Assembly: GCA_963827315.1 (NCBI GenBank)
Contig: CAWHAL010000004.1
Coordinates: 221,829-285,828 of the forward strand
Length of the DNA stretch: 64,000 nucleotides
Source: an uncultured Planctomycetota bacterium
Lineage (GTDB): Bacteria; Planctomycetota; Phycisphaerae; Sedimentisphaerales; Anaerobacaceae
Direction of reading: 5' to 3'
Both the position numbers and the translations under genes were made by a program. The notes below the pieces were generated by a model, which was given only the letters and a program-made list of their open reading frames with translations, had not been told where the DNA came from and made no database searches. Below are positions 10,998-55,645 of this stretch, in pieces (the first letter of the stretch is position 1; every line of letters starts with the position of its first letter).

Positions 10998-11675
10998 CTA
11001 CATAGTCGCCTCATCTTTGGTACCAGCGCTCTTTCTACCCTGCGTGGCTGCCTGCAACAGAATCGTTACACCCAGAGCTGCCAGGACAACCCCCGAGACA
11101 AGGATTGTACGCTGCGTAGAAAGAAGCACAAGGTAGAATGCGGTTACCACGCAGCCCGCGAAGCTGGCCACCGTCGAGAGCGCAAGAACCAGCCCCGTAT
11201 TGAGTCCGGAATCGCTCGCTCGTGTTGTCAGCCAGCGCACCGCCGTGGGCGAAACCGTCCCGAGCAGCAGGGTCGGCCCGCCGAACAGAATAAGGGCAGC
11301 TAAAAGAGAGCCCCATTTCTCGTCCAACCCAATATTGAATATCCCGTCGCACACAGGCTCTGTGAAAAAAGGCATAGCGCACAGCCACGCGCCCGCCGCA
11401 ATCAGGCTGCCCCCCAGCATCAGTTTGCTGCTGGCTTTTCTGGAAAGCCATCCGCCGAGCATATAACCAGCCGAAAGGCTGAGCAGGAAAACCCCGATTA
11501 CGCTGCCCATTACCACATATACAGCACTGCCAAAATATGGGGCGAGCACTCGAACTGCGAGGATTTCCATTTCCATCACGAACCAGCCGCAGCCGCACGC
11601 GATAAGGACTATCGCTACGGCCCGCAGCTTTCGCCCATTTTCCCAGTCTGCATTTTTGGATGATTGATGCCCCAT
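10998..11675 (-). CDS. polytopic membrane protein resembling the N-terminal domain of fused MFS/spermidine-synthase proteins
   Basis: About 6 TM helices. The motif ILAVRVLAPYFGSAVYVVMGSVIGVFLLSLSAGYMLGG is typical of the membrane part of fused SpeE-like proteins (memory). Confidence 0.6.
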   Translation of the reverse strand: MGHQSSKNADWENGRKLRAVAIVLIACGCGWFVMEMEILAVRVLAPYFGSAVYVVMGSVIGVFLLSLSAGYMLGGWLSRKASSKLMLGGSLIAAGAWLCAMPFFTEPVCDGIFNIGLDEKWGSLLAALILFGGPTLLLGTVSPTAVRWLTTRASDSGLNTGLVLALSTVASFAGCVVTAFYLVLLSTQRTILVSGVVLAALGVTILLQAATQGRKSAGTKDEATM

Positions 11676-11684
11676 CTAAGCGGC

Positions 11685-11761
11685 AATCTCAATCCCCCAA
11701 CAGTAAATTGTCAATAGTAAATAATAAATTGAAATCCCCTATCCCCTATACGCTAATTTTT
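11685..11761. repeat. heptad-phased tract (11 units, AAT-family plus ATCCCCT x2)
   Basis: AATCTCA ATCCCCC AACAGTA AATTGTC AATAGTA AATAATA AATTGAA ATCCCCT ATCCCCT ATACGCT AATTTTT. Confidence 0.8.
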
Positions 11762-11852
11762 TTCCTTGCTTTTTCTGACAATTCCGGCCATAACAGTTAT
11801 CACAGAAGCCTAAACCTAAGTAAATGATTATCAAAATCGAAGGAGAAATATT

Positions 11853-12569
11853 ATGAACACGAAATTGTTTCCAGCCTGCGGCCAAGCTGCCGTTATTTTG
11901 GTATTGACAGTTCTGCTCATTTGGCCGGCTCAAGTCTTGGCGGTGGACGCAAATTCAACTGCCGCGAAGGATGTTAATTCGGCCGGGGCGGCAGAGCTTA
12001 AGCCCATCCAGCTTCCCAAGCCGCAGATGGACGGCGGTAAACCCCTGATGCAGGCGTTGAAGGAGAGAAAGTCTTCGCGCGCATTCAGCACTGAGAATCT
12101 GCCCCCGCAGGTGCTTTCAAATATGCTCTGGGCAGCCTGCGGAATCAATCGCCCCGACGGAAAGCGTACTGCACCGACCGCGATGAACAAGCAGGAAATC
12201 GATGTCTACGTTGCCACTGCCGAAGGCCTTTACCTCTATGATGCGAACTCACATTCGCTAAAACCTGTCCTGGCAGGAGACATCCGTGCTGTAACCGGCC
12301 GTCAGCCGTTCGTCAAAGATGCGCCCGTAAACCTCATCTTTGTCGCCGACCTTTCAAAGATGGGCAATTCCCCAGCCGACCAAAAGGATTTCTATGCAGC
12401 TACCGACACGGGCTTCATCAGCCAGAATGTTTATCTGTACTGTGCTTCTGAAGGATTGGCGACTGTTGTGCGCGGCGCTGTTGACAAACCGGCCCTGGCC
12501 AATGCGATGAAACTGCGACCCGACCAAAAGGTCGTCCTCACACAAACGGTGGGCTATCCGAAAAAGTAG
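11853..12569 (+). CDS. secreted nitroreductase-family (SagB/ThcOx-like) protein
   Basis: Signal peptide. RKSSRAFSTENLPPQVLSNMLWAACGINR, and a C-terminal nitroreductase fold (TDTGFISQNVYLYC). Confidence 0.7.
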   Translation: MNTKLFPACGQAAVILVLTVLLIWPAQVLAVDANSTAAKDVNSAGAAELKPIQLPKPQMDGGKPLMQALKERKSSRAFSTENLPPQVLSNMLWAACGINRPDGKRTAPTAMNKQEIDVYVATAEGLYLYDANSHSLKPVLAGDIRAVTGRQPFVKDAPVNLIFVADLSKMGNSPADQKDFYAATDTGFISQNVYLYCASEGLATVVRGAVDKPALANAMKLRPDQKVVLTQTVGYPKK

Positions 12570-12662: not shown

Positions 12663-14177
12663 TTACCGCACAATCCTAAACGCATAGGCGTATTGACACG
12701 GTCTGGTGGCAGGAAGGCTGATGTGTAAGCCTTTTGCGTCACGTGTCCATTTCAGTTCGCCCTGATGCCCCAATAGGGTCACCGCTCTTATAGCCCCCAC
12801 CGAAGGCTCCCGTGTGGACAATGATTCGATGTGTAAGACATTGTCCCTGGGCCAATCCAGCGCAATGGCGTAGAGTGTTTGGCCGTCTTTGGATTGGGTA
12901 AAACGAATATCACGCTCAGAGAAGGGCGAAACCCGGGCACGCGGTTCCGGTTTTTTTACCGGCCCTTCGCCGAAGCGTATCCACGGACGCGAACCAAAGA
13001 TAGCCTCGCCGTTGATGCGGTTCCACTCGCCCAGCTCCCTGAGGATACTTATCGTATCGTCATCAAATGTGCCGTCCGCCCTCGGCGGGACATTCAGCAG
13101 CAAGTTGCCGTTTTTGCTGACTATATCCACAAACTTATCTATCAGTTGGTCTGCTGAAGTGTACGGCACTCTTGTATCATAGCCCCACGGTCCAATCGAG
13201 TCGTCGGTTTGCCAGGGCTGTTCGAGCAATCTGTCCGGCACATTTCGTTCGTAGTCGAGCGTTGCGATACCGGGGACATACCAGCCCTTGTTGTTGTCCT
13301 GACGCATTGCTGAGGTCTTATATGTTAAGACGACCTCCTGACGGCCATGGTGTCGCTGCTGGCCGGCATTATAATAGTGTGCCACAACCTCAAAACCGGT
13401 TTGTCCCTTGTCGTCGAGGAAGGGGATAGCTCCGTCAAGGTACACCAAATCCGGCTGGTAGTTATCTATCAAGTCGAGCGTACGCAGCTTCCACGACTGT
13501 TTCCACCACGCTGGCGATACAGCGGGATAACGCATTGCCGTATCGCCGTGTGTCGGATGGTAGAGTTCTTCAAATTCCTTTAGGTTGCCGTCATACGGCA
13601 CGCCTGTGTAAGGGCCGTTGGAATCGGCACCATGGCTGGTCTGGAACCAGCAGTAGCTGTTAGCTAAGTGATTAGTCACTCCAAAGCGCAGTCCGTAAGC
13701 CAGCGTCGCCTGGCGCATCATTCCGATTAAATCCTTCTTCGGGCCCATATTCACGGCGTTGAATCGCTGGTATTTCGAATTCCACAGGTCAAAACCGTCG
13801 TGATGTACCGCACAAGGCGTGAAGTAGCGGGCCCCCGCATCCTTGAAAAGCTTAAGCCACGCATTGGGGTCAAACTTTTCTGCTTTCCATAAGGGTATAA
13901 AATCCTTGTACCCGAATTTGCTCGGATGGCCGTAAGTCTTGACGTGATGTGCATAGACCGGGTCGTTTTGGTCGTACATCCTGCGCCCGTACCACTCGCC
14001 GCGTTCCGCCACAGAATACACCCCCCAGTGCACATAAATCCCCAACTTGGCGTCGCGGAACCATTCAGGACATTCATATTGTTTCAACGACTGCTCATTT
14101 GGCTTAAAATGCACATCTGCACACGATAGCTGAACCAGTGGCAAAAGCATCAAAGCCAACAGCATTCTTGTCTTCAT
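12663..14177 (-). CDS. alpha-L-fucosidase, GH29
   Basis: WFRDAKLGIYVHWGVYSV and HHDGFDLWNS. Start set at MKTRMLLALMLLPL (signal peptide) with GGGAG upstream. The ORF track start is 14222. Confidence 0.85.
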   Translation of the reverse strand: MKTRMLLALMLLPLVQLSCADVHFKPNEQSLKQYECPEWFRDAKLGIYVHWGVYSVAERGEWYGRRMYDQNDPVYAHHVKTYGHPSKFGYKDFIPLWKAEKFDPNAWLKLFKDAGARYFTPCAVHHDGFDLWNSKYQRFNAVNMGPKKDLIGMMRQATLAYGLRFGVTNHLANSYCWFQTSHGADSNGPYTGVPYDGNLKEFEELYHPTHGDTAMRYPAVSPAWWKQSWKLRTLDLIDNYQPDLVYLDGAIPFLDDKGQTGFEVVAHYYNAGQQRHHGRQEVVLTYKTSAMRQDNNKGWYVPGIATLDYERNVPDRLLEQPWQTDDSIGPWGYDTRVPYTSADQLIDKFVDIVSKNGNLLLNVPPRADGTFDDDTISILRELGEWNRINGEAIFGSRPWIRFGEGPVKKPEPRARVSPFSERDIRFTQSKDGQTLYAIALDWPRDNVLHIESLSTREPSVGAIRAVTLLGHQGELKWTRDAKGLHISLPATRPCQYAYAFRIVR

Positions 14178-14297
14178 AGATGTTTTCTCCCTTATTGACA
14201 CATAGCGCCTGGGCAAAACCATAATATTTAGCAGGGGTAATTCTTTCCCGCCATTTATGGCGGGCTTTGCCGTTACTTACCATCGCAATCCCAACCC

Positions 14298-14395
14298 AAA
14301 TAATAAATCGTCAATGGTAAATAATCAATTGATTCCGCCACGCCTTGGGGTCCAAATCGAAAATCTATCCCCAATCCCCACCCCCTAATTATTAT
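14298..14395. repeat. heptad-phased tract, 14 units in one unbroken phase
   Basis: AAATAAT AAATCGT CAATGGT AAATAAT CAATTGA TTCCGCC ACGCCTT GGGGTCC AAATCGA AAATCTA TCCCCAA TCCCCAC CCCCTAA TTATTAT. Confidence 0.8.
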
Positions 14396-31533: not shown

Positions 31534-31589
31534 TCTGTCATCTGCCGTCTGTCGTCTGTCTTCTGCCTTCTGTCATCTGTTCTTTCGTC
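31534..31589. repeat. heptad tract TCTGNNN x8
   Basis: TCTGTCA TCTGCCG TCTGTCG TCTGTCT TCTGCCT TCTGTCA TCTGTTC TTTCGTC. Confidence 0.85.
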
Positions 31590-33643: not shown

Positions 33644-33678
33644 TGGTAACTGGTTATTGGTTACTGGTAACGGGTTAC
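33644..33678. repeat. heptad tract TGGTWAY x5 with nested palindromes
   Basis: TGGTAAC TGGTTAT TGGTTAC TGGTAAC GGGTTAC. The outer inverted repeat is ATGGTAAC...GTTACCAT. Confidence 0.85.
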
Positions 33679-37131: not shown

Positions 37132-37159
37132 CCCCTCAATTTATTGAGGGGTTTCTTTA
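37132..37159 (+). terminator. terminator-like hairpin inside the 104-bp repeat (copy 1)
   Basis: CCCCTCAA-TTTA-TTGAGGGG followed by TTTCTTTA. No obvious upstream plus-strand gene. Confidence 0.3.
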
Positions 37160-37614
37160 CTGACGCCGGGGTGCAAACGCGAGGTCCGCTTATACCATTT
37201 CCGCGAAACGCGGCGTATTTAGCCTTGGGTTTTACCCTGGGTTGCAAACGTGAGGATTGCTTTCCCCTTCAACGCCCGCCGTTTGGGCGTTTGTATTTAG
37301 CCCCGGCCTCCGGCCGGGGTTGCCTGCGCGAGGTCCGCTTATACCATTTCCGCGAAACGCGGCGTATTTAGCCTTGGGTTTTACCCTGGGTTGCAAACGT
37401 GAGGATTACTTTCCCCTTCAACGCCCGCCGTCCGGGCGTTTGTATTTAGCCCCGGCCTCCGGCCGGGGTTGCCCACGCCTGCCCTGCTTGCCCCGTGAGA
37501 CGTGTCGTGTACTGTCTCACTGGGGTGAGACTTGCCCTGTGAGATGCGCAGTGTGCTATCTCATCAGGGTGCGCCGTATGCTATCCCATCGGGGCGAGGA
37601 ACGCTTAAATTTAC

Positions 37615-37642
37615 CCCCTCAATTTATTGAGGGGTTTCTTTA
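37615..37642 (+). terminator. terminator-like hairpin inside the 104-bp repeat (copy 2)
   Basis: Same sequence as copy 1. Lies about 170 nt upstream of the 693-aa gene. Confidence 0.3.
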
Positions 37643-37808
37643 CTGACGCCGGGGTGCAAACGCGAGGTCCGCTTGATATTCGTTTTCCTTCATATACCGC
37701 CGGTATAGAACGCAGAACGAGATTCCGGTTGCAAATGGACCCGTTTTGGGGATAGAATTCCAATGTGCGGGAATGAAGCACCGCGAAAAATAAATCGGAG
37801 ATTTTATT

Positions 37809-39890: not shown

Positions 39891-40040
39891 TAGGGACAGC
39901 TATCGTTTTTTACAGCCCCCTCGTCCCTTTTCCTTGTCCACTCCGCTGACTTCTCCGCCCGCGACTTCAATTTTAGTTTTACGTCGCCGCGCACGGGCCA
40001 CGAGCAACGAAATTTTCCTTCGGCCAAACCAAAAAATACA

Positions 40041-40089
40041 GTGTTAATCTGTGTTAATCCGTGTCTAAAAATCTGTGTAATCAGTGATT
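40041..40089. repeat. short GTG-initiated ~10-bp repeats
   Basis: GTGTTAATCT GTGTTAATCC GTGTCTAAAAATCT GTGTAATCA GTGATTAAT. Confidence 0.6.
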
Positions 40090-40127
40090 AATTTTTCTTT
40101 GTGCCTTTTGTGTTTTAAAAAACCCTG

Positions 40128-40328
40128 CTATCTCTTCTCTTGATGGCCGAGTATTCTGGCCGGTAGAAACAGAATAGATTTAATCAGGGCCAAAAACGCA
40201 TCGGCGGCAATACCCACAATACGAAATGGAATCGACAAAAGCCATATAACCGGCCATAATACCAATGCCAACAATGCTATCGGCCAGCACAACGCCAGCA
40301 AAATCGCCCACAACAGTAAGACAAGCAA
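40128..40328 (-). CDS. possible small hydrophobic membrane protein
   Basis: 66-aa ORF with two strongly hydrophobic helices. The only start is a TTG, and the AGGAGA is 16 nt away, so the call is weak. Confidence 0.35.
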   Translation of the reverse strand: MLVLLLWAILLALCWPIALLALVLWPVIWLLSIPFRIVGIAADAFLALIKSILFLPARILGHQEKR

Positions 40329-40628
40329 TACCTTAATTGTATGTCTCCTAATAAATAAGCTGCGTCCATATTATAACGTGCCCCAACATTAAAAACCAGT
40401 AGATTTGATTCGATATCCTTAAAAAAACTTGTATTTTCAGTTAAATTGCGCAGCCATCGGCCAAACTATGCAGCGGAATCCACGTCTTAAAAATCCCCGC
40501 CAAAATCGCCATTCGTAGCGCAGCGCAAGCCTCAGGATGATTTTGCAAAAGTCGCCGTTCGTCTTCTGACTTGTGCTCTTATGCACTTACGACTTTTGCT
40601 CTTGCACACCTACGCTGTTGCTGCCGGC

Positions 40629-40663
40629 GAGATACGAGATACAAGCGACGAGCCACGATTCAC
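40629..40663. repeat. heptad tract, GAGATAC family
   Basis: GAGATAC GAGATAC AAGCGAC GAGCCAC GATTCAC. Confidence 0.8.
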
Positions 40664-40721
40664 AAATCCCCCATTCTCAAAACCTTCACTTAAAAATCCT
40701 TGCTTATTAAGTCACGACATT

Positions 40722-40756
40722 AGTATATATGCATATACTAATATACTTTCTGACGC
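40722..40756. repeat. 35-bp perfect direct repeat, copy 1
   Basis: AGTATATATGCATATACTAATATACTTTCTGACGC. Contains the 12-bp palindrome TATATGCATATA. Confidence 0.9.
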
Positions 40757-40894
40757 TAGGTGGTATTGACACCTACTGAAAAAACATCTAAAAAATTCCC
40801 ACCTCAAATCCCTCTTTCAAAAAAACCATGTTTCTTAAACTCCTCATTCCCAAAACCCTCGTTCTCAAAACTCTGATTCTTAAAGCAGTCCGTA

Positions 40895-40929
40895 AGTATA
40901 TATGCATATACTAATATACTTTCTGACGC
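40895..40929. repeat. 35-bp perfect direct repeat, copy 2
   Basis: Identical to 40722-40756 and 173 bp downstream of it. Confidence 0.9.
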
Positions 40930-40965
40930 CACCCCGGCAAAACCCGCACTTAAAATTTCTTCGGC

Positions 40966-40993
40966 GACATACGATATACGCACGACGCAACAC
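40966..40993. repeat. heptad tract, GAnAnAC family
   Basis: GACATAC GATATAC GCACGAC GCAACAC. Confidence 0.7.
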
Positions 40994-41007
40994 GAAGTTA
41001 TAGTTTA

Positions 41008-41042
41008 CCCCGTGAGATGTGTCGTTTACTATCTAACTGGGG
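41008..41042. repeat. dispersed copy of the CCCCGTGAGAY hairpin family
   Basis: CCCCGTGAGAT-GTGTCGTTTACT-ATCTAACTGGGG. Same architecture as 37077-37111, 37491-37525 and 37535-37569. Confidence 0.75.
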
Positions 41043-41085
41043 CTGCATCCAAAAAACATCGTAAAATCTCGTGCTTTGGTAATTC

Positions 41086-41168
41086 GAACTTGTCCGCCGC
41101 AGGCGGATTTGTTTAGGACTTGTCCGCCGTCCGTCTGGCGGATTTAGAATTTAGAGATTCGGATTTAG
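41086..41168. repeat. two ACTTGTCCGCC...GGCGGA hairpins followed by GATTTAG heptads
   Basis: TCCGCC-GCA-GGCGGA at 41093-41107 and TCCGCC-GTCCGTCT-GGCGGA at 41123-41142, then GATTTAG AATTTAG AGATTCG GATTTAG at 41141-41168. Confidence 0.8.
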
Positions 41169-41179
41169 AGAAAAGAATA

Positions 41180-41198
41180 CCTAAGTATCTTAGGTATC
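41180..41198. repeat. palindrome CCTAAG-TAT-CTTAGG + TATC, copy 1
   Basis: Seen directly. Candidate operator. Confidence 0.8.
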
Positions 41199-41265
41199 AC
41201 TCCTAACAGTTCAGCGACAAGGTGTATGAAAAAGTTAAGATGTATAAACAAGTTGGCTATCAATG

Positions 41266-41284
41266 CCTAAGTATCTTAGGTATC
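41266..41284. repeat. palindrome CCTAAG-TAT-CTTAGG + TATC, copy 2
   Basis: Identical 19-mer, 86 bp downstream of copy 1. Confidence 0.8.
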
Positions 41285-41362
41285 GCTCTCGGCTAATCAA
41301 TGCTTATGAACTGCGAACTACCAACCACAAACTTGCTCGTCGCGGCCCCCGCCAGCAACAAA

Positions 41363-41397
41363 GTCTGGCGTCTGTGGTCTGGTGTCTGGAGTCTTTT
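41363..41397. repeat. heptad tract GTCTGNN x5
   Basis: GTCTGGC GTCTGTG GTCTGGT GTCTGGA GTCTTTT. Confidence 0.8.
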
Positions 41398-41460
41398 GGC
41401 CGCGCATGTCGCTGCGCGACCAAATGCGCAAGGGGGTACTTCAATCACTGTCCAAAACGC

Positions 41461-41541
41461 ACCAATTTCTTGCAATTTTTGCTAATTTTTTGAAATTTTT
41501 ACGAATTTTTGCAAATTTCTTACAATTTTTTGCATTTTTTT
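41461..41541. repeat. eight helically phased T-tracts (9-11 bp period)
   Basis: ACCAATTTCT TGCAATTTTT GCTAATTTTTT GAAATTTTT ACGAATTTTT GCAAATTTCT TACAATTTTTT GCATTTTTTT. Confidence 0.85.
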
Positions 41542-41732
41542 CGCTCAACTTGCGCGTTTGATGCGAAATTTTACTTTGCCCCGCTTGCCCAATTGCTACA
41601 TCTTAACGCCCACCCCAATTTTATCCGCCTGTGACGGACCCCCGTTTTTAACCCAAAAACCAGCTTAGGCCCCTAAAAATCAGCCCCAAATTTTCCCAAA
41701 ATTCCGGATTGTCAAGGTTGGATTATGAATGC

Positions 41733-41760
41733 TTGCCTTTTAGTGAAAAATGTTTATAAT
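41733..41760 (+). promoter_or_regulatory. putative sigma70-like promoter of the SPOR-gene operon
   Basis: TTGCCT-N16-TATAAT, about 45 nt upstream of ATG 41804. Confidence 0.35.
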
Positions 41761-47755: not shown

Positions 47756-47811
47756 ATTGATTATTTACTATTTGCTATTGACTATTGTTTCGGTTGTCAA
47801 TATTCAATTCA
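47756..47811. repeat. heptad tract (8 units), AAT family on the minus strand
   Basis: Plus strand reads ATTGATT ATTTACT ATTTGCT ATTGACT ATTGTTT CGGTTGT CAATATT CAATTCA. Minus strand reads AATAGTC AATAGCA AATAGTA AATAATC AAT. Confidence 0.8.
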
Positions 47812-50385
47812 AAGGGTTCTGGCTACCTCAATAATTTCATAGAAGTCAAGGACATCGTCAATTTTGACATCGTCAAATTTAGCCAGTTTTATGCCGCATT
47901 CAAGTCCGGCCTTGACCTCTCGGGCGTCATCTTTGAAGTGCCTCAGCGAATCTATCGACAAACCATCTCTGGTTACTATATTGTCGCGTATCAGTCGGAC
48001 TTTCGCATTTTTAGTTACCGAGCCGTCGCTGACGAAACAGCCTGCGACGGTACCAACTTTTGAGACTTTGAAGGTATTTCTGACCACAGCTCTGCCGACC
48101 GTCTTCTCCTGCTTCTCGGGTTCCAGTAAACCTGCCATAGACTTCCGCAAATCTTCGGTTATGCGGTAGATTATGGTGTAGAGCCGGATGTCCACGCCTT
48201 TGACTTCGGCGAGTTTCGATACGTGCTCTTCGGTGACGACATTGAAGCCGATAATAATCGCATTGGAAGCTTCGGCAAGCAGGCAATCACCTTCTGTGAT
48301 TCCGCCGACAGCTGCGTGCAGAACCTTGATTTTTACCTCGTCGGTGCTCAGTTCGGATAAATATTTCGTCAAGACATCAACCGAACCCTGTGCGTCGGCT
48401 TTGATAATTATATTCAGCTCCTTGATATTGCCAGCCTCAATCTGGGCGAACAGATTGTCGAGTGTTATCTGCGTTCTTTTGGCAAGTGTGCTTTCTCTCG
48501 AACGTATTTTACTTTCTTCAGCGGCATCTTTGGCCTTATTGATGTCGTCGAGGCAATAAAATCTGTCACCTGCCTGGGGGACATCGCTAAGGCCTGTAAT
48601 CTCGACAGGCATAGAACTGGCGGCGACTTTTACGTTTTGGCCGTAGCTGTTACTTAGAGTTTTAACTCTGCCGTAGGTGGCTCCTGCCAGAACCACATTG
48701 CCTTTTGTCAATTGGCCCTCTTTGACCAGCAACGTCGCCACGGGACCTCGCTGTGATGACATCTTTGCCTCGACGACCCATCCTGTTGCCGGGATTGTGT
48801 CGTCGGCCTTGAGCTCAAGCAGCTCAGCGACATAATCGAGATGCTCAAGCAGCGCATCAATACCTTCACCTGTAACAGCGCTTGTCTTGACAACTTCGGT
48901 CTGGCCGCCCCATTCAGCCGGTGTCAATCCGTGTTCGGACAACTGTGAGTAAACACGGTTGTAATTGCAGCCGGGCAGGTCGATTTTATTTAAAGCCACT
49001 ATGACAGGCACATTGGCTGCCTGGGCGTGATGTATGGCCTCTATTGTCTGCGGCATTACGCCGTCGTCGGCAGCCACAACGAGCACCACCACGTCCGTCA
49101 TATTCGCGCCACGAGCTCGCATAGCAGTGAAAGCCTCGTGTCCCGGCGTGTCGAGGAAAGTTACCGTGTGTCCGCCGATAGTAGTCTGATACGCACCGAT
49201 ATGCTGAGTAATGCCGCCGGCTTCGCTGGCTGCTACCTGAGTCGAACGAATTCTGTCGAGCAGACTGGTCTTGCCATGATCAACGTGGCCCAGCATCGTA
49301 GCGACGACGGGACGCTTCTGGAGGTTCTTACGCTCGCACCGGTCGAATTCGCTTTGTATCTGCTCCTGCAGGTTTTTCCTGTGCTCTACCACTAATTCAG
49401 TGCCGAAATCCAAGGCGAGCAGTTCGGCAGCATCTGAACCTATGGTCTGATTGGCTGAGGCCATTATACCCTGCTGCATCAGTTTGGTGATGAGCTCAGG
49501 CGATTTGACCGCTAAGGCAGCAGCCAAATCCTTGACGGTAATTGGCTCATTTATGGTGACCTTTGCCGGCCGCGCAGTGGTAACTGCCGCCTGCATCGAT
49601 TTGGCGGCGATTTTCCGTATGGGTCTTAGTCTGATGCGTTCGCCAACAGCAGCATCAAGCCGGGCCCGCCTTTCCTCCATATCTTTTTGCCGGCGTTGAC
49701 TGGCGAATCTAAGTCTTTTCGCAACTTCCGTATCCGGGTCGTATCGTCGGCGACCGTGCGTTCGTTCACCATGCCATTCGGGAGCGCCTTTTTTGCGTTT
49801 TGCTGCAGTCGCAGTAAGTTGCTCCTCGTCCAGCTCATCAGGAAACAAAGGTTCGGTAACAGGAACACCGTACTTCGCCCTTGGTTTTGGTCTTGGGGGA
49901 GGTTTTAACGGTTCCGGTGCTTCAACTCTGACAATCTGAGGACCAGATAATTGGGCAGGCTCCGGTTTTTCCAGCATCGGGCCTGCGGGTACTATTGGCT
50001 CCGGTTTCGGCTTCTCGGGTTTTTCCGCTTTATGTGGTTTTATTATTGTTGGCTTTTCTTCGGTCGCGGCGGCAGCTTCTGTGGCAGGCTCAGCAGCAAC
50101 CTCTGTGGGCTCATCTTTCTTTTTCTCTTTAGCTTTTTTTGGCGGATGTTCTTTCGCTGGTTTTTTCTTGATTCGCGCCTTGCTCAGGTCGACCTTCTCT
50201 GTCGTCTCAACCGTTGTGATGTTATCGCCTTCGCTGAACCATTCACGAATAGTTGCCGCCAGGCCGGCCGATATCACCGACATATGGTTTTTGACGTCCA
50301 GACCCTCGTCGCGACACTTTTTGATGATGGCGGAGCTTTTTACACCAAGCTCGTTTGACAAAATATAGACCCTTGTGGTGGCCAT
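47809..50385 (-). CDS. infB: translation initiation factor IF-2
   Basis: G domain ([26 protein letters not shown]), a Pro/Lys/Glu-rich N-terminal region, and C-terminal domains. Confidence 0.95.
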
Positions 50386-50425
50386 AAAATTTATATCTCG
50401 TATCGTGGGACCTGCTTTGTGGCGG

Positions 50426-51701: not shown

Positions 51702-51731
51702 AAAAAAAGTGGAAACTTCTACAGTTTCCAC
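51702..51731 (-). terminator. intrinsic terminator/attenuator 47 nt upstream of the nusA start
   Basis: On the minus strand: GTGGAAAC-TGTAGAA-GTTTCCAC followed by TTTTTTT. Confidence 0.6.
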
Positions 51732-51985
51732 CTCAGCGAAAAACGCACACGATGATGTAGCTCATTCCTATACTACATCAGTAGCCTCCCATAGCAAGCA
51801 AACTCACTCGTTTCCCGGCACCGAAGCAGAAACATCGATTCACAAGCCACCATTTGCGCAGAAGCATGGCCGAATAGACAATTTATCCGGTCAGTCTGCA
51901 CTGTTCGCCAGTCCTGTCAAAATCATCTCAAGTTCCCTTAATTCGGCTTTGGTAGCACTCTTGCTAAATCCTTATAACAAGGGTC

Positions 51986-52013
51986 ATTATAGTTAAATCG
52001 TTCTGCCTGTCAA
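51986..52013 (-). promoter_or_regulatory. consensus sigma70-type promoter directed toward nusA
   Basis: Minus strand reads TTGACA-N16-TATAAT exactly. Confidence 0.5.
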
Positions 52014-52292
52014 TGATAATAACTTTTTTGCCGAATTTACTTGATTTTTGCTTAACTTCACTGTGGGAAATAGACTTGAGGCTAAAGGACCTCTCCTGGT
52101 TCGCAAATGTCCGATAAAACAAGGTTTTTGACCTGCAGAAAGGGGTTTATCGTGTATCTAAGCTGGTTGTCTCTGTGTGGTGTTTTTTCTCATAGTCTGG
52201 GGCGAATTTGGTCAATCTCACGAGATTTCCTTTGCCCAATAGTCCGGTGCGGCGCAAATCTATATTATCACCGACAGAGAAGCGCAAAAACT

Positions 52293-54111: not shown

Positions 54112-54214
54112 TATAATGGTACAAATACTTAGGTTTTGGTCGCAAGACCTCGGTGAAGACCATTAACTTTTTTGTACCATACTGTGAGCAGTGATTTCGG
54201 CGGGAAACAGAGTG

Positions 54215-55645
54215 ATGGTTAGTCATGCGGAATACCAAACACAAAGAAGGTTAAAGCCAGACACAATCAGGGACAGGGGATACTTCGCCGGTAAAAAAGT
54301 TCTGGTTATGGGCCTGGGGCGGTTCGGCGGCGGCGTTGATGTCGCCAAGTTTGCCGCCGGCGCCGGCGCAAAGGTAATAGTAACAGATATTGCTGCCGCC
54401 GAGCGGTTAAGCGGTTCACTAAAGCAGTTGGAAGGATTAAATAACGTAGAATATCACCTCGGCTCACATATCGCCGGTGATTTTGAGCGGGCCGATATTA
54501 TCGTAGTCAATCCTGCTGTGCCTGCCGATAATGAATTTCTGGAGATTGCCCGCCGAAACAACAAACTTATCACTTCGCAGGTGAATATTTTTTTTGAACT
54601 GTGCGCCGCAACGATAATCGGCATAACAGGAGCCAACGGCAAAAGCACGACAGCAGCACTCACAGCGCATTTGCTCAGAAGTACGAGAAGCGAGATACGA
54701 GATACGAGAAACGAAAACGTCTGGCTGAGCGGCAACATCGGCGACCAGCCGTTGCTGATGGTAGCGGACCAGATTGGCCCTGATGACCTCGTTGTATTAG
54801 AACTGTCGAGTTTTCAGCTTGAGCAGTTGGCTCAAATTCAAAAGGTGCCGCAGGTTGCCTTGCTGACAAACCTTACGCCGAACCACCTTGACCGTTACGG
54901 AACGTTCGCCAGTTACTGCCGGGCCAAAGAAAATATATTCAAATACCAGAAGCCGAACGGGAAATCGCTGCCGGTTTCGTTTTTTAACGTCGAAGATAAG
55001 ATAGGGGCCGAATGGTTTGAAAAATACAGCAAAGATAAGAGGAGAACTTGTCTGAAGTTTTCTGCTGATGATGTAAGTGGAGAAATTCGTTCTTGTTTCA
55101 CACTGCTTGGCCGGGCCAATCTTTCAAACCTTGCCGCTGCAGTTGCCGTCGCGAAGTACTTCGGCGCGGATGAGGAGGCGATAAAGAATTGTCTGCTTGG
55201 ATTCAAGCCGCTGCCGCACAGACTCGAGTTGATATCGCAGATAAACGGCGTATCCTGGTATGACGATTCCAAAGCCACCACACCCGACAGCGCAATCGCT
55301 GCGCTGGAGGCATTCGAACAGCCGATAATAATAATAGCCGGCGGATACGATAAGAATATATCATTCGACAAGTTTGGCGAAGAAGTTGCCCATAAGGCAA
55401 AGGCGGCGGTTCTGATTGGGCAAACCAGAGAAAAAATCGCGGCGGCGATACGGTCGAGCCGGGCAGATGTTCTAACGGTTGAGTTTGCCCAATCACTGGC
55501 CGAGGCTGTGGGGCTGGCCGAGCGGCTGAGCACACCCGGTGACGTCGTTTTGCTCAGCCCAGCTTGCGCCAGCTTCGATATGTTTGAAAACTTTCAGCAG
55601 CGGGGCCGGGTATTTCGCGAGTTGGTCCGAAAAATCAGCGGTTAA
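54215..55645 (+). CDS. murD: UDP-N-acetylmuramoylalanine--D-glutamate ligase
   Basis: VLVMGLGRFGGG, P-loop GITGANGKSTT, GNIG, LPHRLE, and the Mur ligase C-domain. Start set at ATG 54215 (the ORF track GTG is 54191). Confidence 0.9.
   Translation: MVSHAEYQTQRRLKPDTIRDRGYFAGKKVLVMGLGRFGGGVDVAKFAAGAGAKVIVTDIAAAERLSGSLKQLEGLNNVEYHLGSHIAGDFERADIIVVNPAVPADNEFLEIARRNNKLITSQVNIFFELCAATIIGITGANGKSTTAALTAHLLRSTRSEIRDTRNENVWLSGNIGDQPLLMVADQIGPDDLVVLELSSFQLEQLAQIQKVPQVALLTNLTPNHLDRYGTFASYCRAKENIFKYQKPNGKSLPVSFFNVEDKIGAEWFEKYSKDKRRTCLKFSADDVSGEIRSCFTLLGRANLSNLAAAVAVAKYFGADEEAIKNCLLGFKPLPHRLELISQINGVSWYDDSKATTPDSAIAALEAFEQPIIIIAGGYDKNISFDKFGEEVAHKAKAAVLIGQTREKIAAAIRSSRADVLTVEFAQSLAEAVGLAERLSTPGDVVLLSPACASFDMFENFQQRGRVFRELVRKISG
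54685..54719. repeat. heptad tract (GAGATAC family) inside murD
   Basis: GAGAAGC GAGATAC GAGATAC GAGAAAC GAAAACG, which encodes most of the RSEIRDTRNEN segment. Confidence 0.8.

Follow-up and report, generated by a model that had tools for sequence, protein, structure and literature searches.

Heptad-phased AAT tracts in the intergenic DNA of an uncultured planctomycete are probably slippage-driven heptanucleotide repeats

The genes and repeats of a 64,000-nucleotide stretch of contig CAWHAL010000004.1 from an uncultured Planctomycetota bacterium (the window) were analysed around three intergenic sites that carry phased AAT heptads (Table 1). Site 1 lies within a 177-nt spacer between two divergent open reading frames (ORFs), one for a membrane protein and one for a nitroreductase. 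Site 2 is flanked by two reverse-strand genes, a GGDEF gene with its stop codon at 14392 and an alpha-L-fucosidase gene that starts at 14177. In the nusA-infB-rbfA operon, the spacer between infB and rbfA is 59 nt long; site 3 takes up half of it, and the rbfA ATG that follows site 3 has no Shine-Dalgarno (SD) sequence. The genes beside the three sites are functionally unrelated, and the orientation of the sites relative to them varies. A previous reading made from the letters alone (the sequence-only reading) had placed all three within 10–80 nt of a start codon. This is so for site 1, which is 30 nt from the divergent ATG at 11675 (but 123 nt from the nitroreductase ATG at 11853), and not for site 2, where the distance is ∼120 nt to the fucosidase ATG and 62 nt to the GGDEF stop; for site 3, the rbfA ATG is 6 nt and the infB stop 22 nt away. 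We conclude, with a probability of about 0.7, that the three sites are short tandem heptanucleotide repeats with the unit AATNGTM (complement KACNATT), driven by slippage in a lineage prone to period 7.

Read in 7-nt steps, positions 11685–11761 gave exactly the heptads spelled out earlier, and the recurrence of their core was found again at 14306–14329 (forward strand) and 47756–47786 (reverse strand), where 6 nt separate the last AAT from the rbfA ATG (47749). Site 2 is longer than had been noted, as its AAT tract (14299–14335, forward strand) has five phased units starting at 14299. Each site thus contains four to five phased AAT units, where a heptanucleotide simple sequence repeat has at least three head-to-tail 7-nt copies. 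Tandem Repeats Finder (TRF) reported a period of 7 with 4.7 copies for site 3, and ATCCCCT ×2.3 within site 1. The order of the units is the same at all three sites (NGTC, RGYA, ARTM). The left flank GCAATCNCAAYCCC and the right end AATTGA are common to sites 1 and 2; site 3 has the repeat unit in common with them, but not the flanks. The 24-nt pattern of the sequence-only reading had no matches in 100 dinucleotide shuffles with up to 3 mismatches allowed, a test that is pattern-dependent since the pattern was derived from the three sites themselves. Three AAT triplets at 7-nt spacing occur 10 times in the window, 8 of them inside the three tracts, whereas block shuffles yielded 0.64 such hits on average and never more than 3; by this test the window has no fourth AAT heptad tract. 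The tracts are real, heptad-phased and dispersed, and far above chance in these shuffle tests. The consensus sites of IHF, Fis, the DnaA box, extracytoplasmic function (ECF) sigma factors and sigma-54 were compared by eye, and none fits.

Table 1. Positions of the AAT heptad tracts, of other heptamer arrays and of associated genes and candidate sites in the window.
Feature	Position	Strand	Remarks
225-aa membrane ORF	10998–11675	-	ATG at 11675, SD-less
Site 1	11685–11761	+	eleven phased heptads, AATCTCA ATCCCCC AACAGTA AATTGTC AATAGTA AATAATA AATTGAA ATCCCCT ATCCCCT ATACGCT AATTTTT; between 225-aa membrane ORF and nitroreductase gene
Site 1 complement, candidate promoter-like arrangement	11686–11714	-	TTGACA-N17-TGAGAT or N18-GAGATT; 9–10 nt before the SD-less ATG 11675
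Site 1 AAT core	11706–11732	+	AATTGTC AATAGTA AATAATA AATTGA
Candidate nitroreductase promoter	11766–11794	+	TTGCTT-N17-CATAAC; 33 nt downstream of the AAT core; 8/12 matches, below threshold
Nitroreductase gene	11853–12569	+	ATG at 11853
Site 2 composite	14287–14335	+	AATCCCA ACCCA, then AATAATA AATCGTC AATGGTA AATAATC AATTGAT
Site 2 promoter-like site	14300–14328	-	TTGATT-N17-TATTAT; all within the heptad complement, toward the fucosidase gene; 9/12 matches
C-rich heptads	14368–14381	+	TCCCCAA TCCCCAC; 36 nt past site 2; rotation of AATCCCC
TCTGTCN ×7 array	31534–31582	+	upstream of dnaG; 4 units in ortholog L124
TGGTTAC ×5 array	33644–33678	+	dnaG-rpoD spacer; absent from L123/L124
Site 3	47756–47786	-	AATAGTC AATAGCA AATAGTA AATAATC AAT
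Partial inverted heptad copy	47795–47808	-	ATTGAATATTGACA; directly after the infB stop
Two CGAGATA-type heptads	50383–50407	-	directly before the SD-less infB ATG; CGAGATA ×2.1 in L123–126
TACGAGA-type array	54682–54716	+	5 units, in frame; inside murD (54188–55645)

The enrichment of period 7 is not confined to the AAT unit. TRF detected 8 period-7 arrays in the window, with a mean of 1.47 and a maximum of 3 in 30 dinucleotide shuffles, while periods 8–11 were at background. The units found were TCTGTCA ×6.7, TGGTTAC ×5, AGTCTGG ×4.7, TACGAGA ×4.7, CGAGATA, ATCCCCT, GCTTTGC and the site 3 array. The autocorrelation of the intergenic DNA peaked at lag 7 (0.277, versus 0.255–0.263 at the neighbouring lags). 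The analysis was extended to 486 kb, consisting of the window and relatives chosen by protein homology only. Arrays of four phased trinucleotides numbered 234 at period 7, versus 14–62 at periods 5, 6, 8, 9 and 10, and AAT was one of the commonest anchors. A strict self-match detector returned 19 period-7 arrays versus 0–7 at periods 5, 6 and 8–12; 13 of the 19 are intergenic, although intergenic DNA makes up only 17% of the bases. Overall, the period-7 excess in the 486 kb was about 4–17-fold over periods 5–10, so that period 7 is over-represented relative to both other lengths and shuffles, mainly between genes. The 7-nt periodicity check proposed in the sequence-only reading was thereby positive.

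Orthologous loci (L-numbers, taken from other genomes or contigs for comparison with the window) were used to follow unit numbers. The relatives of the window's RbfA comprise a cluster at ∼90% identity, including one named Sedimentisphaerales, and matches at 72–78% identity named Planctomycetota or Sedimentisphaerales. The infB-rbfA spacer has four units and three substitutions relative to the window in L121/L122 (RbfA 91% identical), but is only 29 nt long with 2 units (ATAGTA AATAGTA AAT) in L123–L126 (also 91%). At 75–78% RbfA identity, the spacer reads AATATTG AATAGTA AATCGAG ATACAAA CACGAGA in L209–211, holds an inverted pair of CGAGATA units in L208, and is without heptads in L207. At site 1, L127 (nitroreductase 87% identical) has a composite with three ATACGCT-type units instead of one, making it 14 nt longer, and L128 (86%) has a shortened, decayed version with a different upstream neighbour; remoter nitroreductase orthologs lack the tract, yet have a -35/-10 pair at the position of the candidate nitroreductase promoter. 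For site 2 there is no informative empty site: the sole syntenic relative, L212 (fucosidase 97% identical at the protein level), is nearly identical to the window, and the next relatives are not syntenic. The array upstream of dnaG has 7 units in the window versus 4 in L124, and that in the dnaG-rpoD spacer 5 versus 0. The murD array, which encodes a variable loop, has 5, 5 and 2 units in three relatives (L123 has 2, L121 has 5 diverged ones); the difference of 21 nt equals 7 codons, hence the reading frame is kept, with a 7-residue deletion in L123. Altogether, the differences between relatives amount to 14 nt, 21 nt or an entire array at five loci. Because orthologous sites carry the same arrays with different unit numbers, we ascribe the tracts to slippage. 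This was one of three options raised earlier, and the one that the orthologs bear out.

The tracts are also well conserved over short distances. The site 1 tract differs from that of L127 at 5 of 61 aligned positions, compared to 32% of nitroreductase third codon positions (P = 1e-5), and the infB-rbfA spacer differs from that of L121 at 3 of 59 positions, compared to 15.5% of rbfA third positions (P = 0.013). With a divergence below that of third codon positions, the tracts lie within DNA that is subject to purifying selection, which is the usual state of entire regulatory spacers. At this time scale, the tracts are not neutral filler, though they are turned over at greater distances.

The distribution of the unit was determined with the pattern AATNGTCAATNGNAAATANTNAAT, using one genome per GTDB species, which matched at least 120 stretches. 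Among the matches listed, 74% extend the AAT phase by at least one unit past the pattern (∼3% by chance), and 205 AAT arrays were counted in 827 kb of loci. Going by their record titles, the 120 stretches listed comprise ∼52 from Planctomycetota (∼43%; Sedimentisphaerales, Phycisphaerae and 'Pirellulales' bins), 20 from Bacteroidota, 14 from Acidobacteriota (mostly Pyrinomonadaceae) and 8 from Desulfobacterota, the rest being scattered. The cross-phylum distribution is taken cautiously, as some taxon labels are unreliable: certain contigs of metagenome-assembled genomes (MAGs) are evidently mis-binned or come from phages. The sequence of L097, which bears the label 'archaeon', is that of the Planctomycetota loci L012/L120, and L037 (Bacteroidales) and L055 (Desulfobacteraceae) have flanks in common. 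Such near-identical array surroundings in bins of different phyla or domains point to mis-binning or to mobile or phage DNA in public MAGs. When viral contigs were scanned with this pattern, 29 stretches matched, and 76 arrays were counted in 226 kb. In these, several genes per phage-like contig have an invariant 31-mer, CAATAGTCAATAGTCAATCGAAAATAGTCAAT, 8–15 nt ahead of their SD and ATG (IMG/VR contigs L217, L221, L228, L231 and L243; also L020, L037, L040, L044, L055, L072 and L100). The 31-mer is often preceded by a 14-bp hairpin (GGAACGCTACGCTT / AAGCGTAGCGTTCC), and a 24-mer of it also occurs in low-coverage MAG contigs assigned to different phyla. This 31-mer may be a phage regulatory signal.

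We propose that slipped-strand mispairing would create and turn over the tracts in Sedimentisphaerales-like Planctomycetota with period-7-prone intergenic DNA, and that tracts may be retained where their composition suits a local job. The tracts then look alike because the same unit is used, and not through descent from, or service to, one regulatory element. A single conserved element with a common regulatory role, another option of the sequence-only reading, is not upheld, given the unrelated neighbours, the varying orientation, the missing flanks of site 3, and the other heptamers or none in remoter relatives. The more specific possibility that the tracts are operator or activator sites of one heptad-binding protein, with the three genes as its regulon, is unlikely. 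The identical unit order, the conservation of the tracts beyond third codon positions and the recurrence of the invariant 31-mer upstream of several phage-contig genes speak for such a protein, and SARP regulators (Streptomyces antibiotic regulatory proteins) bind heptameric direct repeats in Streptomyces (PMC5930380). Apart from the unrelated genes, however, the distances to the start codons range widely (6, 30/123 and ∼120 nt), the unit number and the distance to the nearest -35 shift by 14 nt between close relatives, which is not a whole number of helical turns, and the site holds other heptamers or has lost them in relatives with RbfA 75–78% identical. Many other heptamer units behave likewise in the same genome.

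The orientation of the arrays was analysed relative to their gene neighbours. In tandem spacers, 47 AAT arrays are forward and 42 reverse, and hence there is no overall strand bias; 34 further arrays lie in divergent and 19 in convergent spacers, and 21 overlap ORF calls. Forward arrays have no preference for either spacer end, while reverse arrays are nearer the end of the upstream gene in 30 of 42 cases (Fisher p = 0.03). Forward arrays also stand 16–36 nt upstream of tRNAs, one of them between two tRNAs of an rRNA operon spacer, and reverse arrays come after the 3′ ends of tRNAs. In an rRNA operon of Sedimentisphaerales (L101, 2864–3070), an inverted pair of AAT arrays (TTTACTATTG / CAATAGTAAA) makes up the spacer between two tRNAs upstream of the 23S rRNA.

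The complement strand has the geometry of a sigma-70 promoter (-35 TTGACA, 17 bp, -10 TATAAT), a class defined by two such hexamers 16–18 bp apart that face a gene. The complement of the units is GACNATT or TACNATT, and the junction ATT|GAC yields TTGACN; a TACNAT unit three units downstream begins 23 nt after the start of TTGACN, so that the spacer is 17 bp long. Alternating AATNGTC/AATNGTA units therefore have the complement TTGACN-N17-TACNAT, and in the KACNATT orientation arrays could act as sigma-70-type promoters. By the criteria of the promoter-scanning tool, a promoter-like match on the complement strand was present in 41 of the 205 arrays, versus ∼14 in shuffles; on the AAT strand the number was 22, versus ∼15. 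A typical complement match is TTGACT-N17-TACTAT, 20–200 nt before a start codon. Of the arrays with such a match, 28 of 33 face a gene start, as compared to 62 of 129 of those without (p = 1.4e-4); with a second ORF cut-off, the fractions were 27/34 and 63/132 (p = 0.001). The lineage uses the canonical consensus, as the nusA promoter is conserved as TTGACA-N17-TATAAT. The consensus score is reached by only a minority of the arrays, and their promoter activity is a prediction from sequence.

At the individual sites, the predictions differ. Site 2 passes the promoter scan, where shuffles of the region average 0.5 sites, and is a candidate for the promoter of the fucosidase gene. The predicted 5′ leader, between site 2 and the start of that gene, holds a perfect palindrome, CCCGCCAT TT ATGGCGGG (14247–14264), which is kept in L212 and has no U-run on the transcribed (reverse) strand. 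The complement of site 1, with a perfect TTGACA that is kept in L127, is a possible promoter for the divergent ORF, whose mRNA would be leaderless because the candidate promoter ends 9–10 nt before the ATG. In the AATNGTM orientation, the arrays would give A-rich RNA leaders without significant predicted structure before SD-less start codons or tRNAs, and site 3 before rbfA would be of this AU-rich leader type. The nusA promoter itself (52013–51986) is followed by a long, probably structured leader; the nusA leader region of ∼570 nt (51719–52292, reverse strand) is strongly conserved in relatives and has no Rfam match.

Promoters also occur beside the arrays, and the tracts might serve as AT-rich, UP-element-like activator DNA for adjacent AAT-strand sigma-70 promoters; an UP element is an A/T-rich block at -40 to -60, immediately before the -35. 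The arrays of L012, L065, L097 and L120 end 4–10 nt before a TTGCCT/TTGACA-N17-TATTTT promoter, and 13 of 179 arrays have a promoter-like site at most 22 nt from their 3′ end, versus ∼6 in shuffles; all 11 of those 13 with a called neighbour face a gene start. This arrangement fits only ∼7% of the arrays, however, and not the three sites: the core of site 1 ends 33 nt upstream of the conserved -35, at a distance that is 14 nt different in L127, site 2 faces a gene end on the AAT strand, and site 3 has an operon-internal position. As known from A-tract bending, a 7-bp spacing of AAT is moreover out of phase with the DNA helix. We consider the UP-element explanation improbable.

A tiny mobile or dispersed element of ∼50 nt, composed of AATCTCAACCC, AAT heptads and AATTGA and resembling a miniature inverted-repeat transposable element (MITE) or an SDR, would account for the full composites, which occur, in either orientation and amid unrelated flanks, twice in the window and in L012, L034, L065, L120, L127 and L148, and for the unit family in phage-like contigs. 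Terminal inverted repeats flank none of the tracts, however, which sets them apart from MITEs; site 3 lacks the composite's flanks, orthologous copies vary by whole internal units rather than by presence or absence of the element, and L128 retains a decayed remnant at the same place. No transposase-like partner turned up, and none was searched for. A mobile origin is accordingly quite improbable. That the tracts are structured RNAs (a riboswitch, attenuator, terminator or small RNA) is largely refuted: although many arrays elsewhere have a nearby inverted partner and a potential hairpin (L013, L019, L045, L101), and ATTGAATATTGACA and the first part of the site 3 array can form a weak hairpin of 7 bp (a centroid stem with a z-score of −0.9, not significant), the window has no Rfam family besides one tRNA, folding of all three sites on either strand gave z-scores of −0.9 to +0.85, within one standard deviation of shuffles, AAT-strand RNA is nearly unstructured (−2.6 to −4 kcal/mol over 66–86 nt), direct repeats of a non-palindromic unit cannot self-pair, and sites 2 and 3 have no terminator-like sites.

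Several observations weigh against slippage-driven repeats with promoter and leader uses as the full account. The left flank AATCTCAAYCCC is found twice in the window and in L012, L034, L065, L120, L127 and L148; since it is common to arrays in other Planctomycetota MAGs, pure in-situ slippage is insufficient. The invariant 31-mer shows that some members of the unit family are under sequence-specific constraint. Near-identical strains from independent assemblies have identical arrays (L121 equals L122, L123–126 are identical, and L212 equals the window), and this lack of length variation indicates that slippage is slow at short arrays and that short-term phase variation is unlikely. Only ∼20% of the arrays pass the promoter test (∼7% of shuffles), the association between promoter-like matches and orientation is absent from the phage-like (viral) contig loci, and the gene neighbours were taken from crude ORF calls. 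The reverse-strand arrangement at site 1 is below the promoter threshold and passes only with a relaxed -10, and the scan gave no promoter-like match within the site 3 array. The left flank AATCTCAACCC as the -10 (GAGATT) of a reverse-strand promoter was also tried and rejected: it fits 5 copies, of which only those in the window and L127 have a gene downstream.

Other repeats occur in the window. A short palindrome, GGTAACGGGTTACC, follows the TGGTTAC array in the dnaG-rpoD spacer. A 1.86-kb stretch without an ORF of at least 100 aa (39891–41746, GC ∼43%) is dense with short tandem repeats, namely CAATTTTTTG ×7.9 (41463–41541), a 23-mer ×2.4 (40568–40622) and a 15-mer ×3 (40837–40884), and has heptads at 40628 and 41362. 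The 653-nt spacer before the TerB/TPR gene (37141–37793) has a 149-nt ×2 tandem repeat with 97% match (37178–37473) and 44-/25-nt repeats extending to 37594; its motif CCCCGTGAGA...TCTCAC also occurs downstream of a promoter in L012. Within ORF 1206–2069, which has no Pfam match, a 123-nt tandem repeat ×3.4 with 86% match (1598–2015) would encode a 41-residue protein repeat.

The sequence-only reading knew of no described element of this kind in bacteria of the Planctomycetes-Verrucomicrobia-Chlamydiae (PVC) group, and its assignment of the window to that group is borne out by the RbfA relatives. Within the reach of a literature search this stands for the PVC bacteria, and strings of AATNGTM units were not found in that search; it does not stand overall, as over-represented intergenic heptamer repeats are known from cyanobacteria, Xanthomonas, Beggiatoaceae and Geobacter. 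Heptanucleotide repeats are reported to be the most abundant long simple repeats in many bacteria, and polymerase slippage has been proposed as their origin (Mrazek 2007, as cited in PMC4679880 and PMC4692102). Short tandemly repeated repetitive (STRR) heptanucleotides were reported for Calothrix PCC 7601, according to PMC4692102. The heptamers of Nostoc PCC 7120, GGGGA(T/C)T, (GACYAAT)8 and (TTTTGAA)3, are near promoters and start codons. The arrays described here resemble cyanobacterial STRR in having tandem 7-nt units, mostly intergenic, on both strands and often near promoters or start codons, with several unit families per genome. The C-rich heptads beside sites 1 and 2 (ATCCCCT, TCCCCAA) nearly match the complement of the Nostoc unit GGGGATT. 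The Calothrix units reportedly are CCCCA(A/G)T, TT(G/T)GTCA and CAACAGT. CAACAGT occurs at 11698, and TTGGTCA is one position off the AATGGTC repeats. Unlike STRR, which belong to heterocystous cyanobacteria, our arrays are in Planctomycetota; their dominant unit AATNGTM is not among the described units, so that they are not STRR in the strict sense, and they have 3–7 units in the window, whereas Nostoc arrays have up to 26. A cyanobacterial origin of the window was considered and rejected: HIP1 (GCGATCGC) occurs once in 64 kb, the GC content is 49%, and the RbfA relatives are Sedimentisphaerales.

Direct repeats of TAACTGA are found in marine Beggiatoaceae and in some Cyanobacteria and Bacteroidetes (MacGregor 2015, PMC4679880). 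Like the AAT tracts, these are intergenic, in 2–6 copies, and many are a few nt from a start codon without a canonical ribosome-binding site; like the AAT unit family, they have a patchy occurrence among phyla that no evident mechanism of transfer explains. Ribosomal and translation operons are among their locations, and site 3 before rbfA and the heptads before infB fit this picture. The unit differs, however, and the Beggiatoa repeats mostly have one orientation relative to the gene, whereas the AAT arrays have both. The GGGAATC heptameric repeats of Xanthomonas (Rehm et al. 2015, PMC4692102) share the intergenic over-representation of heptamers and not of other unit lengths, a size of mostly ∼4 units, the occurrence of inverted pairs, the proposed origin by slippage, and the variation of length and sequence among close relatives at the same loci. 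A GGGAATC-type array stands before a start codon in the relative L208. The Xanthomonas repeats are G-rich and form G-quadruplexes in vitro, which AATNGTM cannot do. In Geobacter, elements of four heptamers have been described. Finally, the 7-bp repeats in the promoter regions of Haemophilus influenzae hmw1A/hmw2A lower hmw1A mRNA and protein with increasing repeat number (PMC8262952), which is the only experimentally worked-out mechanism for the class of heptanucleotide repeats. Those arrays have 13–24 units and vary within populations; the window arrays are short and identical among near-identical strains, and rapid phase variation is therefore unlikely for them. The kind of repeat is thus already known; what is new here is the host phylum, the AATNGTM unit family with its breadth, and the promoter-geometry observation.

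The favoured explanation of the tracts as slippage-driven heptanucleotide repeats leaves room for a bolder, speculative idea, which we regard as rather doubtful: AATNGTM/KACNATT arrays might be 'self-phasing' promoters made from a simple repeat. With a distance of 23 nt between -35 and -10, equal to three units and 2 nt, every array that mixes both unit types would carry a sigma-70 promoter, which slippage could create, move or tune, while the opposite strand would be an unstructured A-rich translation leader; selection for both uses might explain the recurrence in Planctomycetota, Acidobacteriota, Bacteroidota and their phages.

Heptamer repeats that are over-represented between genes, a poorly understood kind of repeat, have for decades been on record in cyanobacteria, Xanthomonas and Beggiatoaceae. 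The phenomenon is now extended to Planctomycetota (Sedimentisphaerales), and the data suggest that the AATNGTM unit family is common to several mostly uncultured phyla and to phage-like contigs. For genome annotation, such tracts are best labelled as heptanucleotide repeats and not as a regulon motif. The tracts further provide a hypothesis for reporter experiments, namely that one strand of the repeat, which is geometrically a sigma-70 promoter, may drive transcription, and that the other may serve as an A-rich, SD-less leader.

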